In this document: positions 30,001 to 39,000 of the stretch, one piece after another | Layout: every line of letters begins with the position of its first letter | Numbering within the stretch: position 1 is the stretch's first letter | Made by a program: the position numbers | Assembly: GCA_040756875.1 (NCBI GenBank) | Contig: JBFLYH010000001.1 | Coordinates: forward strand, 608,001 to 672,000 | DNA: 64,000 nt | Source of the DNA: a candidate division FCPU426 bacterium | GTDB taxonomy: Bacteria > Oederibacteriota > JAAXVQ01 > JAUVAV01 | Reading direction: 5' to 3'

Positions 30001-33000
30001 GCGTCCATTCGATCCACATGAGGGGAATGCCGAGGAGGAGCAGGGAGATGAAATAGGGGATCATGAAAGCTCCGCCGCCGTTCTGGGCCGCCTGAACCGG
30101 GAAACGCAGGAAATTGCCCAAGCCCACTGCGCTGCCCGCCACAGCCATGATTACGCCGAGTTTTGAACCCCAGGTTTGACGCATTCCGACACACCTCTTC
30201 TGCAGAGCGTTGCCATTAACTTACCGAATAATTGCCGTGAACACAATGAAAAAGCCGCTGTCAGCTATCTTTACTTGACCGGGGGGTTGTGATATGATTC
30301 ACAGTCTTCTTCCCCCACAAGACCTATACAAACCCCGCCCTTGCCTATGGGAATGAAAGGGTATATTGGGTTGCACGGGGTATTCGATCCGGAGGAACTA
30401 CCATGCAGATTGCCAGAAGAATGCAAAGGATCTCGCCTTCACCCACGTTGGCCATTGACGCCAAAGCCAAACAGATGAAAGCCTCAGGGATCGACATTAT
30501 CAATTTCGGAGCCGGGGAGCCGGATTTTGACACCCCCGAGTACATCAAACAGGCCGCGATTGCCGCCATTCAAGCCGGGTACACCAAATACACTCCGGCT
30601 TCCGGCTCGCCTGAATTAAAAGAGGCGGTATGCGAGAAATTCCGCCGGGAGAACGGGCTCGATTATTCCATGAAGGAAGTCATCATCAATTGCGGGGCCA
30701 AGCATTCCATCTACAATGTTTTTCAGGTGTTGATCAACCCGGGCGACGAGGTCTTGATCCCCGCGCCCTATTGGGTGACCTATCCGGAGGCCGTCAAGCT
30801 GGCCGGCGGAAAACCGGTTTTCATCAAGACCACCGAAAAGACCGGTTTCAAAGTGCCGGCTTCGGTTCTGAGACGGAAAATTACGGCTAAAACGAAAATG
30901 GTGGTCATTAACTCTCCCAGCAATCCCACCGGCGGGGTATATACTCCTGAAGAGTTGAAGGAATTAATGAAGGTGGCCATGGGGAAAAAGATTTATGTCC
31001 TTTCCGACGAGATCTACGAGCATCTGGTTTACGACGGCGCCAAGCACGTCTCGCCGGCTGCGGTGCTGCCCGAGGCCAAAGCCTGGACCGTGGTGATCAA
31101 CGGCGTGTCAAAATCCTTTTCGATGACCGGCTGGCGGATCGGTTACACAGCCGGCCCGGAAGCGGTGATTTCGGCCATGGGCAATCTGCAAAGTCACTCC
31201 ACGTCCAATCCCACCAGCATCGCCATGAAAGCGGCCGTGGCAGCCCTGACCAAACCTGCGCAGGAACTGCCCAAGATGCAGGCGGCCTTCAAGGAACGTC
31301 GCGATTTTATCGTGAGCCGGCTGAATGCCATCGGAGGGGTGACCTGCCTCAAACCCCAGGGCGCCTTTTATGTCTTTCCGAACATAGGGGCCCTGCTGGG
31401 GCAACGGTTGGGCGGAACCCTGATGTCCACCGGTCAGCAAATCGCGGAATACCTGCTGGAAAAAGCCCGGGTGGCCGTGGTCCCCGGCGACGGCTTTGGC
31501 GCGGATGAATACCTGCGCATCTCCTATGCCACTTCCATGGAGAATCTCAAGCAGGGCATGGCCAGGATCGAGGCGGCCCTGGCTGAAGCCTGAGGCTGTG
31601 CTTCAATAATCCGATAAACCGAAGGAAACATCATGATCAATTGGCTATTGACCAAACTGTTTGGTACCAAATCCCAACGGGACATTAAACGGCTGCTCCC
31701 GATCGTGGAACGGATCAACGGCCTGGAACCCGGGCTGAAATCCCTGAGCGATGAGCAGCTGCGCGCCAAAACCGAAGAGTTCCGTCAGCGCCTGAAAACC
31801 GGAGAGACGCTCGACGACTTGCTGCCCGAAGCATTCGCGGTCGTGCGCGAGACCTCGGTCAGGACGCTGGGATTGAGGCATTTCGACGTCCAGATGATGG
31901 GCGGCATCGTTCTTCACCAGGGTAAAATCGCCGAAATGAAGACGGGGGAAGGCAAGACCCTGGTGGCGACCCTGCCCGTGTATCTCAACGCCCTGACCGG
32001 GGCGGGCGTGCATCTCATTACAGTCAACGATTATCTTGCCGAACGCGATTCCATGGGCGCCGGAAACTTCCGCGGGATGGGCGAGATTTACCGGTTTTTG
32101 GGTCTGACCGTGGGTTGCATCAAGCATGGATTGAACTCGAGGGAGCGCCAGACCGCTTACGCCTGCGACGTGACCTATGGCACCAACAATGAATTTGGAT
32201 TCGATTACCTCCGGGACAACATGGCCATTCATCCGGACGAACGGGTGCAGCGAAAGCTGAATTTCTGCATCGTCGACGAAGTGGATTCCATTCTGATCGA
32301 CGAAGCCCGGACGCCGTTGATTATTTCGGGGCCGGCCGAGGAATCCACGGATAAATATTACCGTGTCGACAAGATCATTCCGCGCCTCAATGCCGCCGCC
32401 GATTATACCATTGACGAAAAGTCCCGGACCGCGGTTCTGACCGAAGAGGGGATTGCTCACGCGGAAAAATTAATGGCCGTGGGCAACCTATACGACCCCC
32501 GCAACGTGGAGATTCTGCACCACATTCATCAGGCCCTGAAAGCCCACGCTTTGTTCAAACGCGACCGTGATTACGTCGTCCAGGAAGACCAGGTGGTGAT
32601 TGTGGACGAGTTCACGGGGCGGCTCATGCCAGGGCGGCGTTTTTCCGAAGGGCTGCACCAGGCGCTGGAAGCCAAAGAAGGCGTTCGCATCCAGCGGGAG
32701 AACCAAACCCTGGCCTCCATCACTTTCCAGAATTATTTCCGTCTCTACAACAAATTGAGTGGAATGACCGGAACGGCCGACACCGAGGCCGAGGAATTCA
32801 TGCACATCTACAAACTGGACGTGGTCGTCGTTCCAACCAACCGCCCCATGATCCGCGCAGACCACGGCGACCAAATCTTCCGAACGGAACGGGAAAAATT
32901 TGCGGCCGTGGCGCAGGAAATCAAGGAAGCTTATACGCAGGGAAAGCCGATTCTGGTCGGCACGATCTCCATCGAAAAAAACGAGACGTTGTCCGAACTT

Positions 33001-36000: not shown

Positions 36001-39000
36001 GACGATAAACCCTACGGCGGCGGCAGCGGGATGGTTATGAAGGTCGAGCCCATCGCCCGGGCATTGGCAGCCGCGAGGCGCGCGGGCTCCTTGGGGAAGG
36101 TGTATTTGCTGACTCCGACCGGCCGGCGCTTCGATCAGGCCATGGCGCAGGAAATGGCCCAGGCGCAGGCTTTCACCCTGCTGTGTGGAAGGTATGAAGG
36201 GATCGACCAGCGGGTTGAAGATCATCTCTGCGACGGTGCGATTTCCGTCGGCGATTATGTCCTAAGCGGCGGGGAACCGGCTGCATACGTGGTCGTGGAT
36301 GCCGTCATGCGCCTGGTGCCCGGCGTGCTGGGGGCTGGGGATTCGGCATTATTGGACTCTTTTTCCGGTGGCTTGCTGGATTACCCGCATTATACGCGTC
36401 CGCCGCGGTATCGTTCCTGGCAGGTGCCGAAAGAGCTGCTCTCCGGACATCACCACCAGGTAACGGTCTGGAGGCGTGAACAACAAATAAAGCTCACCGA
36501 ACAGCGACGACCGGATCTTATCCGGGTCGCGGAGAGCAAACCGCATAAGACACAGGCGGAATCGCGACGGCTGCCAAAACGCCGTAAAGCAGGAGGAAAG
36601 CCATGAATATCGGGGAAACCATCAAGCAAGTCGAAAAAGCCTATTTGCGGAAGAAGCGCCTTCCCACCTTCAAACCTGGCGATGTCATCAAGGTATTCAG
36701 CCGGATCAAGGAAGGTGAAAAAGAGCGCATTCAGGTTTTTGAAGGAATGGTTATAGGCCGCAAAGGCACCCATTTGCGTGAAATGATCAAGGTTCGCCGA
36801 ATCGCTTCCGGGGTTGGAGTGGAAAGGATCTTCAATCTTCATTCGCCCATGATCAGTGAAATCAAGGTCGTGAAACATGGAGAAGCTTCGCGCGCCAAGT
36901 TGTACTATCTACGGGGGAAAACCGGGAAACATGCCCGTGTCCGGCAAATGAGAAGGGAAAAAATGCTGCAATTGCAGGCACAGGAGCAAAGCGCCATGGA
37001 AGCGGAGCAAGTCGCCTCAGCCCTGGCGGCGGCCCAGGAGGCCGCTCCGATCGCGGCAGACAAGGATGCGTCCAAATCCACCGAGGCGTGAGCATGGGCC
37101 CGATAACGCTTTCCGCTTCAGGAAAGCTGGGGACGAGACTCCAATTCGAAATAAAGGCGCGTACCGAGGGATATAAACGGGTGGCCGGACTGGATGAAGC
37201 CGGCCGCGGACCCCTGGCCGGCCCTGTCGTTGCTGCCTGCGTGATTTTACCCGAAGATTGTCAAGGACTGGAAGACCTGGACGATTCCAAGAAGCTTTCA
37301 GCCGAAAAACGCCGTGAACTTTTTATTCTCATCCATGAACGGGCCTTGCATGTGGGAGTCGGCATCGTGGATGCCGGCACCATCGATCGGATCAATATCC
37401 TCCAAGCCACCTTTCTGGCCATGCGCAAAGCGGTGGCCGCGCTATCGGCCCAACCCGATTATTTGCTTATTGACGGCAACCGGCGCCCGGAATGGGCCGG
37501 AGCGGCCGCTTCCTGCCTGGTACGTGGCGAATCGCAATCCTTATCCATTGCCGGCGCTTCCATTATTGCCAAAGAAACCCGGGATCGGATCATGCTCGAC
37601 TACGACCATTTGTATCCGCATTGGGGTTTTGCGCGGCATAAAGGCTATGGCACCCAAGCCCATTTGGAAGCCATACGACGCCACGGCGTCTGCGATCTTC
37701 ACCGCCGCAGTTTTGCTCCTATACAGCAACTGACCCTGGCATGGGCCGATTAAACCGCAGCAGCGGTCTGGCAGGCGAGAAAGCCGCAGCCGAATATCTT
37801 CTGCGCCATGGGTACAGCATCCTGGAAAAAAATTATCGTACACCCTGGGGTGAAATTGATCTTATTGCCAAGCAAGAAGACTGCTTGTGCTTTATTGAAG
37901 TAAAAAACAGAAGACAGGGTGTATACGGGCATCCCTTGGAAGCCGTAAGCGCGTTAAAGCAAAAAAGAATCACGCGGGCAGCCCAAGCATATCTATCAGA
38001 AAAATTCATTTCCCAAGAACCTAGTTGCCGGTTTGAAGTAATCGGCATTGATGAAAATGGTGAAATTACGCATATTAAAGATGCTTTTCAAGCATAAATA
38101 AAACATTTCTTTGTTCCGTTCACTAAACCTATAATAAACAAATGCGATTCAGCCATTTGTAAATAACTGCAATAAATCCAATGTAAATAATATACAACGG
38201 AAAGTATCGATTGCGAATTGTATGCCTAAATAGGGCACACCATATAAAGGGAAAGTAAAAATATCTTGCGCAAAATATAGTATTGGACTATAATTCGGCC
38301 AAGATAAGCGGAAGAACAAAACCTCAGCGTATTTCCGCAAAAATTCGAACAGGGAGGCGATCCAGAAAGTGATTACAAAAACCGAAATGTTGACGCAATT
38401 GGCAACCTCGACCGGGTTAAAGAAGAAAGATGTGCAAACCGTGCTGGATGCACAAACTAAACTTCTGTACAAAATTCTGAAGCGCGATAAAAAGTACAAA
38501 TTGCAAGGCTTGGGAATTTTTGCTGTGAAAAACCGTAAAGCCAGATTAGCCCGCAATCCGCAGACCGGCGAAGTCGTAAAAGTACCCGCCAAGACTGTCG
38601 TGAAATTCAGGGTTGGCAAGGATCTGAAGTCCAACGTTTTGGGAAAATAACGAAATCAAGCGGAAACGGCTGCTCTCGGAGGAAATGACCTCCCACGAGA
38701 GCAGCCGTTTTTTTTTGCTTGACGTCAAGACCCCCTCTTTATACTATAAAGCATAAACTATACCAACCAGAATAATAGGAGTCGATAGGTGAACAAGAAT
38801 CCTTTTCGTCACGGAGAAGCAGTAGGCGGCGATTATTTCACAGATCGATACAAAGAACGCGAGTTTTTATTAGCCGAGCTTTCCACGGGCCATAATGTGC
38901 TGCTTTCCGGGCCGCCTCAGTTCGGTAAATCATCCTTGGCCCGTAAAGTCATGTCCGAATTCGAACAACGCGGTGTAATGTCCGTTTATATCGATTTGGA

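Follow-up and report, generated by a model that had tools for sequence, protein, structure and literature searches.

Loss of the entire signal recognition particle pathway in a class of FCPU426 (Oederibacteriota) bacteria and, separately, in other branches of the phylum

[quoted passage not shown] SRP is taught to be universal, and this phylum bears on the question of how membrane proteins are targeted in the few bacteria that lack it. The window, that is the whole stretch of DNA analysed, comprises 64,000 nucleotides (contig JBFLYH010000001.1, positions 608,001 to 672,000) of a class member referred to here as G000, a genome of 3,220,762 bases in 7 contigs (100% complete, with five 100-base N gaps) and about 2,200 called genes.

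Profile searches of G000 recovered no SRP protein. The best match to the SRP54 domain had an E-value of 0.0083 (16.5 bits, below the cut-off of 22.7) and the best match to SRP54_N an E-value of 0.43, and the Ffh M domain had no match. The best SRP54 match was a PEP-CTERM/ExeA-type ATPase and was rejected as Ffh or FtsY. Among the 150 of 500 candidates scored with the small SRP RNA model, the best reached 15.5 bits against a cut-off of 40, and no large SRP RNA was found. Queries taken from relatives gave similarly poor matches, both for Ffh and FtsY in tblastn (best E 0.025-0.044) and for SRP RNAs in nhmmer (best E 0.42). A loose motif scan for domain IV of the SRP RNA produced about 90 chance matches, caught just two of four true RNAs and is uninformative. 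The absence in G000 and its class rests on these kin-based searches together with three protein and two RNA models; neither an Ffh with NG and M domains, nor the receptor FtsY, nor a 4.5S/6S SRP RNA was detected in G000. FlhF is also missing from G000 and the class, although G000 has a flagellar cluster; lacking Ffh, FtsY and FlhF, the class possesses no SRP-family GTPase whatever. The profile, RNA, tblastn and nhmmer searches thus confirm the genome-wide survey's note, which had reported ffh, ftsY, FlhF and the SRP RNA, including its large form, as absent from this genome.

No Ffh or FtsY (SRP54) was found in any of the 15 class genomes, 12 of which are at least 90% complete. The class-wide absence claimed in that note therefore holds, but its restriction to the class does not: six further families (f3-f7 and f10) are also without both protein and RNA. 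The earlier counts of the SRP54 family (79 of 99 phylum genomes), the small SRP RNA (55 of 99) and the controls (14 of 14) were all reproduced, although the first is too high as a measure of SRP prevalence because it took in FlhF and unrelated ATPases; the M domain is present in only 59 of the 99. Two of six mid-strength matches were tested (f3/f10; G015 and G041) and proved to be FlhF, scoring 196 and 220 bits with TIGR03499 (cut-off 174 bits), with the Ffh/FtsY models far below on the same proteins. Across families f1-f7 and f10 the M domain occurs in 0/35 genomes, against 59/64 in the remaining families; the SRP RNA, for which 36 candidates were scored per genome, occurs in 0/35 and 55/64, respectively. 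Restricting the comparison to the 60 phylum genomes that are at least 90% complete gave 0/20 for both M domain and RNA in the SRP-less families, compared with 39/40 (M domain) and 40/40 (RNA) in the others. The three parts are therefore jointly absent across near-complete genomes of the class, and across eight families in all. Incompleteness does not explain this, since the 35 SRP-less genomes retain SecY (35/35), TrmD (33/35) and YidC (31/35).

The sites from which the genes were lost can still be recognised. After rpe, ffh was found in 7 of the 9 SRP-bearing loci with downstream DNA and in 0/8 class loci; ftsY follows smc in 9/10 SRP-bearing loci and in 0/12 class loci; and ffs precedes dnaX in 5/5 SRP-bearing loci, against 0/22 SRP-less loci. 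This gene order is common across the SRP-bearing families, and in the class all three sites are contiguous and empty, a contrast that is repeated pairwise between G000 and two SRP-bearing genomes (G035, G037). The distance from promoter to dnaX start is about 60 bases in G000 compared with about 180 in the latter two, and the ffs promoter appears to survive upstream of dnaX in G000. After rpe, G000 carries an alpha/beta hydrolase gene (named by look), with no ffh pseudogene or remnant. The class is sister to the SRP-bearing families f8 and f9 (tree supports 1.0, 100 and 100/100), and this SRP-bearing sister group, together with the shared gene order, makes the loss a secondary one from an SRP-bearing ancestor. 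A single clade of all SRP-less lineages was rejected (AU p 4.5e-7); on the trees SRP was lost at least twice in the phylum, and probably three or four times, the number being two if f3-f7 and f10 make up a single clade. It is extremely unlikely that SRP genes exist in unassembled DNA or have diverged too far to be recognised. As far as the data show, all genomes are metagenome bins, G000 is in 7 contigs with gaps, and the phylum-wide RNA search scored a limited set of candidates. Nevertheless, three unlinked genes are jointly missing in 35 genomes in which the controls are filled, the three ancestral sites are contiguous and empty, and the copies in SRP-bearing sisters are ordinary (TIGR00959 535 bits, TIGR00064 287 bits).

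The survey's note had also proposed that secA stands where ffh usually precedes rpsP. Its gene order for this region is correct, but it omitted two tRNA genes and a sigma-70-like promoter between secA and rpsP (Table 1), and its comparison fails because ffh had already gone from the rpsP cluster in the phylum: ffh lies before rpsP in 0/12 SRP-bearing loci, its site being after rpe. It is thus very unlikely that secA took the place of ffh before rpsP to be co-expressed with the ribosome genes as a direct replacement. In G000 and 7/13 class loci secA does precede the tRNA-rpsP block (five loci are cut by contig ends), but the tRNA-Phe-tRNA-Thr pair also precedes rpsP in 7/12 SRP-bearing loci, secA does so in 0/15 loci of other SRP-less families, and in one genome (G008) other genes intervene. 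The tRNAs and a putative own promoter separate secA from rpsP, although the promoter match alone is no proof, with 1 site found against 1.5 expected in shuffles. Among the seven class loci with secA beside the tRNAs, five have an aminotransferase gene before it; in G000, where 40 bases separate the two genes, they are probably co-transcribed.

Table 1 Features of the secA-rpsP locus, with positions counted along the window.
Feature	Position	Strand	Remark
Class I/II aminotransferase	30403..31593	+	40 bases upstream of secA
secA	31633..34287	+	884 aa; TIGR00963 1112.8 bits (cut-off 800); sole SecA in genome
Sigma-70-like promoter (putative)	34354..34382	+	TTGACA-17-TACTAT, extended -10; upstream of tRNA-rpsP block
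tRNA-Phe(GAA)	34407..34482	+	also before rpsP in SRP-bearing relatives
tRNA-Thr(CGT)	34599..34674	+	
rpsP (S16)	34807..35076	+	
khpA	35073..35303	+	
rimM	35300..35833	+	
trmD	35830..36606	+	
rplS (L19)	36603..37091	+	
rnhB	37088..37753	+	

The rest of the export machinery is retained in G000, in agreement with the survey's note: SecA, SecY, SecG, SecD/F, YajC and YidC are all present, and SecE was assigned, by location and appearance, to an ORF of 60 aa ahead of nusG. No second SecA or SecY was found in G000, also with profiles built from giant-protein modules, so that with one copy of each there is no accessory Sec (SecA2/SecY2) pair. In some members of the class, giant proteins include a SecY-SecA module. 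SecA of G000 is canonical, with an amphipathic N-terminus and a C-terminal zinc motif, and its ends are alike in SRP-less and SRP-bearing relatives. The arginines of the SecY cytoplasmic loops (R248 and R358 in G000) are invariant in 33/33 SRP-less and 28/28 SRP-bearing sequences. Conserved columns changed in at least three SRP-less lineages numbered 3/380 in SecA, 1/163 in SecY, 0/74 in YidC, 2/31 in uL23 and 1/11 in uL29, with no excess of convergent changes and rates like those of other ribosomal proteins. As these five proteins are alike in SRP-less and SRP-bearing kin, they bear no positive mark of a takeover by SecA. Position 58 of methionine aminopeptidase (K in 31/31 SRP-less sequences, mostly L in SRP-bearing ones) was dismissed as a mark of SRP loss because K also occurs in two SRP-bearing genomes (G068, G074) and 4/6 outgroups. 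Trigger factor delays SecA in E. coli; its loss was ruled out as an adaptation because it is retained in 4/4 SRP-less genomes tested. Its retention, like the absence of SecB from 4/4 SRP-less genomes tested, tells against the SecA route favoured below.

We also consider it highly unlikely that YidC took over targeting through a basic ribosome-binding tail or a second copy. YidC is kept here, and such forms are known from Streptococcus mutans (YidC2) and Rhodopirellula (PMC10066597, PMC4508563), but each of the 31 SRP-less genomes with a match has one full copy. The predicted tail past the last helix is 7 residues with a net charge of +1 to +2 in 9/9 class sequences, and spans 7-17 residues in 12 other SRP-less sequences compared with 7-19 in 20 SRP-bearing ones. 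To judge from these sequences, a take-over by YidC is largely refuted, with neither a second YidC nor a long basic C-terminal tail of the YidC2/Oxa1 type.

On balance we favour the reading that no dedicated substitute evolved and that generic capacities of every bacterium bring ribosomes to SecYEG/YidC. SecA would bind ribosomes at their exit site as well as hydrophobic nascent chains, which it would carry to SecYEG; direct docking of ribosomes on SecY, through its conserved cytoplasmic loops, or on YidC may also occur, and translation of membrane-protein mRNAs may take place at the membrane. SRP would then merely accelerate delivery, and slow growth throughout the phylum would make that speed dispensable, which would explain several losses. 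SecA of E. coli scans the ribosome as SRP does (PMC6692507) and acts cotranslationally (PMC9192764, PMC5674894), and in the same species slower initiation rescues an SRP deletion (PMC7844537) and mRNA targeting bypasses SRP (PMC10066597). By exclusion and by analogy with this work, SecA and direct docking of ribosomes on SecY/YidC most likely suffice in slow-growing cells; in SecA itself, only conservation of the N-terminal helix sequence was observed.

The membrane proteome did not set G000 apart from a comparison genome, nor did a growth-rate proxy set apart the SRP-less genomes. Proteins with at least three predicted helices numbered 285/2231 in G000 and 59/400 sampled in the one comparison genome (G035; p 0.29), hydrophobicity did not differ across 19 orthologue pairs, and no weaker or fewer transmembrane helices were seen in G000, all by a crude hydropathy method. 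The same analysis gave no codon slowdown in membrane-protein genes and no pauses after the first helix. Codon selection is weak phylum-wide (median S -0.06 in 22 SRP-less and -0.19 in 14 SRP-bearing genomes), and the growth-rate proxy did not separate the two groups (p 0.59, from small background samples, with 8/44 genomes dropped for having fewer than 150 codons). The missing codon slowdown and this lack of separation count against the favoured reading. G000 itself has an S of 0.38, 47 tRNAs and one assembled 16S.

The former ftsY slot between smc and recJ holds a five-gene block encoding a propeller protein, a HAMP membrane protein, a DnaJ-TPR protein, a short DnaK and a PilB-like ATPase. 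The first of these is a 466-aa lipoprotein with a BamB/PQQ-type beta-propeller (Pfam PQQ_2, E 9e-51; EMC1 propeller, E 8e-8, slightly below cut-off), found in G000 and 11/12 class loci, and in the twelfth by tblastn. In the eukaryotic EMC, the EMC1 propeller partners an insertase. A dedicated, undescribed factor that replaced SRP, with this lipoprotein as the class candidate and a possible YidC partner, is unlikely. The propeller does occupy the ftsY slot across the class and had no match in the loci of SRP-bearing genomes (3.7 Mb searched), but a lipoprotein faces the periplasm and cannot meet the ribosome, PQQ propellers are common, and the neighbouring DnaJ-TPR gene predates the loss. The latter matched in 42/49 SRP-bearing genomes scored and in 0/11 of f4-f7; DnaJ/DnaK of the slot were rejected as a substitute on this distribution. 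Quite unlikely, too, is that an undescribed SRP-independent route had made SRP redundant, to be lost three or four times; by analogy, its class part could be the propeller with YidC, a counterpart of the EMC insertase.

It is likewise improbable that an attached, predatory or symbiotic life, or very small cells, relaxed the need for SRP, as argued for Parcubacteria and thin Leptospira. G000 has three ORFs of more than 10,000 aa and pilus ATPases, features linked to predation in Omnitrophota (10.1101/2023.11.21.568195). Against this, the class genomes measure 2.2-3.9 Mb, the membrane-protein load is normal and G000 has its flagellar cluster. Motifs for ilvD, leuC, argG, purA, hisB, aroC, dapA, thrC, ribH, nadA, glnA, atpD and fabF were found in proteins of fitting length; those for trpA, pyrB, metK, hisG and cysK had no match in G000. 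With 3.2 Mb and many biosynthetic motifs, G000 is not reduced, and it shows neither the small genome nor the lost biosynthesis of a reduced-genome symbiont. Where the survey's note calls the organism free-living, the data support no more than this unreduced genome.

The survey's note had placed the novelty in the lineage, and rightly so: complete SRP loss as such is already published, and the new elements are the lineage and the fact that loss recurred next to sisters that carry SRP. Since the phylum combines sister families with and without SRP, visible deletions and at least two losses, a screen of its 99 public genomes can ask whether loss needs a replacement. A first look at SecA, SecY, YidC, uL23, uL29 and the membrane proteome shows no replacement. 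This lends support to the idea that what SRP provides is speed and that cells do not strictly require it. In practical terms, neither ffh nor ftsY can serve as a single-copy marker in the SRP-less lineages.

In the published cases, the groups described lack SRP throughout. Natural, complete loss of Ffh, FtsY and SRP RNA is reported for Leptospira (all genomes), Dehalococcoides and SAR86 (PMC4758666), for Leptospira again in PMC10066597, and a low-complexity gene beside the Sec genes has been proposed as a helper in Leptospira. As in our class, the whole pathway is gone and Sec is kept, and Leptospira cells are likewise non-reduced; the present case differs in its phylum, in several separate losses next to sister groups that kept SRP, in the visibility of the ancestral sites, and in the class's lack of FlhF despite the flagellar cluster of G000. 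Parcubacteria (Patescibacteria) are described as having no ffh and no ffs (PMC4508563) and share with the class a YidC without a basic C-terminal tail, but they have genomes smaller than about 1 Mb, a reduced metabolism and a YidC that is short, whereas YidC of the class is long (511-551 aa) with a periplasmic domain. Life without SRP is also possible in S. mutans, where YidC2 rescues an SRP deletion (PMC10066597), and in E. coli, where SRP-null suppressors act in translation initiation (PMC7844537). These are laboratory mutants, whereas the loss in the class is natural and fixed, with no second YidC and no basic tail. The SecA-mediated cotranslational targeting of E. coli is the working route that we propose for the class, whose SecA is canonical. 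Alongside SRP in E. coli, this route handles a subset of substrates, whereas here it would serve most membrane proteins.

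No signal recognition particle (SRP) component (Ffh, FtsY and the SRP RNA, ffs) was found in the genome under study (G000; 3.22 Mb, 7 contigs, completeness rating 100%). The best SRP54 domain match (E 0.0083, short of the cut-off) was to a PEP-CTERM/ExeA-type ATPase, the SRP54 N domain reached only E 0.43 and the M domain of Ffh had no match. Similarly, the small SRP RNA model scored at best 15.5 bits against a cut-off of 40, and the large SRP RNA had no match. Searches with relatives' sequences gave best values of E 0.025 (Ffh and FtsY, tblastn) and E 0.42 (SRP RNAs), and the sole match to their FlhF, the third SRP-family GTPase, was a 31-residue P-loop stretch. 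SRP54 was also absent from all 15 genomes of the class. The genome-wide survey's note had claimed loss of SRP from this genome and its whole class, a best SRP54 match of E 0.008 on an unrelated ATPase and no large SRP RNA, all of which our protein, RNA and kin-based searches confirmed. The flagellar cluster lacks flhF and a clear flhG (best matches to relatives' FlhG 29-30% identity, E ~1e-9); there, a response regulator and fliA come after flhA, these labels resting on appearance and on matches to genes of G035, an SRP-bearing comparison genome.

In SRP-bearing families of the phylum set (99 genomes), ffh lies after rpe in 7/9 loci where the DNA continues downstream, ftsY comes after smc in 9/10 and the SRP RNA precedes dnaX in 5/5; the class counts are 0/8, 0/12 and 0/10, respectively (for smc, 23 of 30 loci were examined, seven split matches being left out). 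The comparison genomes G035 and G037 share the gene order of the other SRP-bearing loci. No SRP RNA was found within 600 bases of dnaX in 12 loci of other SRP-less families. In G000 a promoter (TTGACG-17-TAGAAT) lies ~60 bases before the dnaX start codon; in the sisters a similar promoter lies ~180 bases before it, with the SRP RNA in between. All three sites are contiguous but empty in G000, and the absence is thus evidence of deletion beyond a mere failed search. The place of ftsY is taken by a five-gene block that begins with a PQQ/BamB-type propeller lipoprotein; its DnaK is short (568 aa; the genome has three DnaK-family genes in total) and its DnaJ-TPR gene is older than the SRP loss. 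In families f4-f6 (L345-L347; G031, G028, G020), yajC-secD(-secF) follows rpe, the ffh site of SRP-bearing relatives.

Features of the genome under study (G000) and its relatives
Feature	Genome	Position	Content
secA neighbourhood	G000	window, secA 31633-34287	aminotransferase, secA, promoter-like site, tRNA-Phe, tRNA-Thr, rpsP-khpA-rimM-trmD-rplS-rnhB
Secreted proteins	G000	window 1291-5757, 21991-28469	
rpe	G000	C1:578209-578976	then hydrolase, glycerol kinase
smc	G000	C1:976023-979664	then five-gene block, recJ
Five-gene block (smc-recJ interval)	G000	C1:968563-975812	propeller lipoprotein, HAMP membrane protein, DnaJ-TPR, short DnaK, PilB-like ATPase
dnaX	G000	C1:1240084	
Flagellar cluster	G000	C2:935000-975000	
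dnaA-side block	G000	C2:812000-824000	rnpA, yidD, yidC, jag, mnmE, rsmG, recF (named by appearance)
Giant ORFs	G000	C1:375381-412940, C1:1055290-1085400, C2:60456-97733 and others	
SecY in giant ORFs (L249-L254)	G012	C1:65118-67079	
	G004	C6:245537-247504	
	G009	C19:25684-27651	
	G013	C297:2071-4029	
	G011	C13:2182-4137	
	G007	C62	
	G001	C8	
Weak second SecY	G070	C13:10464-11186	
	G052	C59:13183-13953	
	G051	C33:45737-46501	
	G011	C115:4176-4868	

The absence is real and extends to more lineages than the note had claimed, which in part misread the evidence. Its count of SRP54 in 79 of 99 phylum genomes was reproduced (E 0.001) but fails as a measure of SRP, since it includes FlhF and unrelated ATPases. 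Six further families had mid-strength (1e-41 to 1e-44) or marginal matches; both of the two mid-strength matches tested, out of six, were FlhF, and three marginal ones were an ExeA-type ATPase, a thymidylate kinase and PilT. The M domain is exclusive to Ffh. It occurs in 59/99 genomes, with 0/35 in families f1-f7 and f10 versus 59/64 in the others. For the SRP RNA (36 candidates scored per genome) the counts were 0/35 and 55/64, in agreement with the note's 55 of 99 and none in the class, f3-f7 or f10. Among genomes at least 90% complete, the M domain was found in 0/20 versus 39/40 and the RNA in 0/20 versus 40/40. The same 35 SRP-less genomes contained SecY (35), TrmD (33) and YidC (31).

The class is the sister of the SRP-bearing families f8 and f9 with full support, both in a 61-genome tree (4028 columns) and in rooted 23-taxon trees (LG+F+G4 and four-state recoding). 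In AU tests (5000 replicates, below the program's advised number, with quick searches), one clade uniting every SRP-less lineage (p 4.5e-7) and a grouping of the class with f4-f7 (p 6e-8) were rejected, f3-f7 plus f10 was weakly rejected (p 0.016) and f3 plus f10 was not (p 0.074). SRP was therefore lost at least twice in the phylum, and probably three or four times. Under these site-homogeneous models f3 and f10 are long branches of shifting position, and SMC has 981-1030 residues in the five f3-f6 and f10 genomes tested versus 1165-1322 elsewhere, which calls for caution against over-counting losses. These frames, ~200 residues shorter, were seen in 5/5 (G015, G020, G028, G031, G041; L394, L395, L397, L399, L400); the class and the SRP-bearing families have an SMC of full length. 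Regain of SRP by transfer is unlikely, given the gene order common to SRP-bearing families at all three sites.

The order ffh-rpsP is present in other phyla, and the note had read secA before rpsP as standing in ffh's place. The adjacency it reported in at least 7 of 14 class genomes holds (G000 and 7/13 class loci; five are truncated where the contig stops, and in G008 the two are separated by other genes). However, ffh precedes rpsP in 0/12 SRP-bearing loci, so secA is no swap for it; seven of these 12 have the same two tRNAs before rpsP, and secA precedes rpsP in 0/15 loci of other SRP-less families. The ffh-rpsP order had thus disappeared ahead of the SRP loss, and the position of secA is a class-level rearrangement. 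In f4-f6 (L116-L123), trmD directly follows rpsP, with no khpA or rimM at the locus and mostly tgt before rpsP. Elsewhere in the window, several secreted proteins resemble PorV/PorQ-type barrels, and one protein has a putative type IX-like domain at its C-terminus.

As the note stated, SecA, SecYEG, SecDF-YajC and YidC are kept: G000 has one SecA, one SecY, one YidC, SecG, YajC, SecD/F, trigger factor and a putative SecE assigned by context. SecB was absent from 4/4 SRP-less genomes tested and present in G035. YidC has no basic tail, SecA ends and SecY loop arginines are alike in both groups, and convergent changes in SecY, SecA, YidC, uL23 and uL29 were no more frequent than in other ribosomal proteins. 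In a hydropathy scan based on a crude gene call, proteins with at least three helices numbered 285/2231 in G000 versus 59/400 in the portion of G035 that was sampled (p 0.29), and 19 orthologue pairs did not differ. Membrane-protein genes showed no codon slowdown, and codon selection was weak in both groups (Sharp's S). Position 58 of methionine aminopeptidase (Map; L140-L199) is K in 31/31 sequences from SRP-less genomes, whereas SRP-bearing relatives mostly have L; it was rejected as a mark of SRP loss, since two genomes with SRP and the majority of outgroups also have K. The dnaA-side block has a GC content of 0.23-0.43 in a 60% genome; the yidC locus lies 0.07-0.23 below the S10 locus in 8/8 other class genomes (L200-L205, L216, L219) and at most 0.06 below in 30 genomes outside the class.

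Seven class genomes, not including G000, encode a near-complete SecY inside giant ORFs of 1,773-13,678 residues, followed in the same frame by a divergent SecA in six of the seven; these fusions are class-only. SecA-like domains in giant proteins have been described (10.1101/2023.11.21.568195, 10.64898/2026.06.07.730766), and neither the available parts of these accounts nor a literature search yielded the SecY fusion. As an SRP substitute it is ruled out by its absence from G000. G000 itself has three ORFs of >10,000 aa and many of >2,000 aa, with up to 42 predicted helices, whose insertion must proceed with neither SRP nor the SecY-SecA module. Four relatives show a second, weak SecY-like match (E 1e-19 to 1e-24, frames of 431-542 aa).

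It is possible that a dedicated factor replaced SRP. Given a single, ordinary Sec/YidC set with no mark of a substitute, we somewhat favour a generic route, by analogy with E. coli: SecA at the ribosome exit would take membrane proteins over, ribosomes could dock directly on SecY and YidC, mRNA would perhaps be membrane-localised, and slow cells would get by without the speed that SRP gives. For each of these steps there is a precedent from E. coli (PMC6692507, PMC9192764, PMC7844537, PMC10066597, PMC5674894).

One TrmD homologue (67% identity) carries the label 'candidate division FCPU426 bacterium', and FCPU426 has been linked to Goldbacteria, neighboured by Firestonebacteria (PMC7031533, the available text of which does not mention SRP); we infer that the phylum covers these three names. 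No published report of SRP loss in the FCPU426 lineage was found, most subscription papers and supplements (marker tables) lying outside the search; PMC7203096 and PMC8321541 contributed nothing further. The finding deserves attention because the losses recurred next to sisters that retain SRP, so that the question of replacement can be tested by comparison. Elsewhere, ffh and ffs are described as absent from Parcubacteria (PMC4508563), and SRP as completely lost in all Leptospira and Dehalococcoides and apparently in SAR86 (PMC4758666); the loss in the class is likewise complete.
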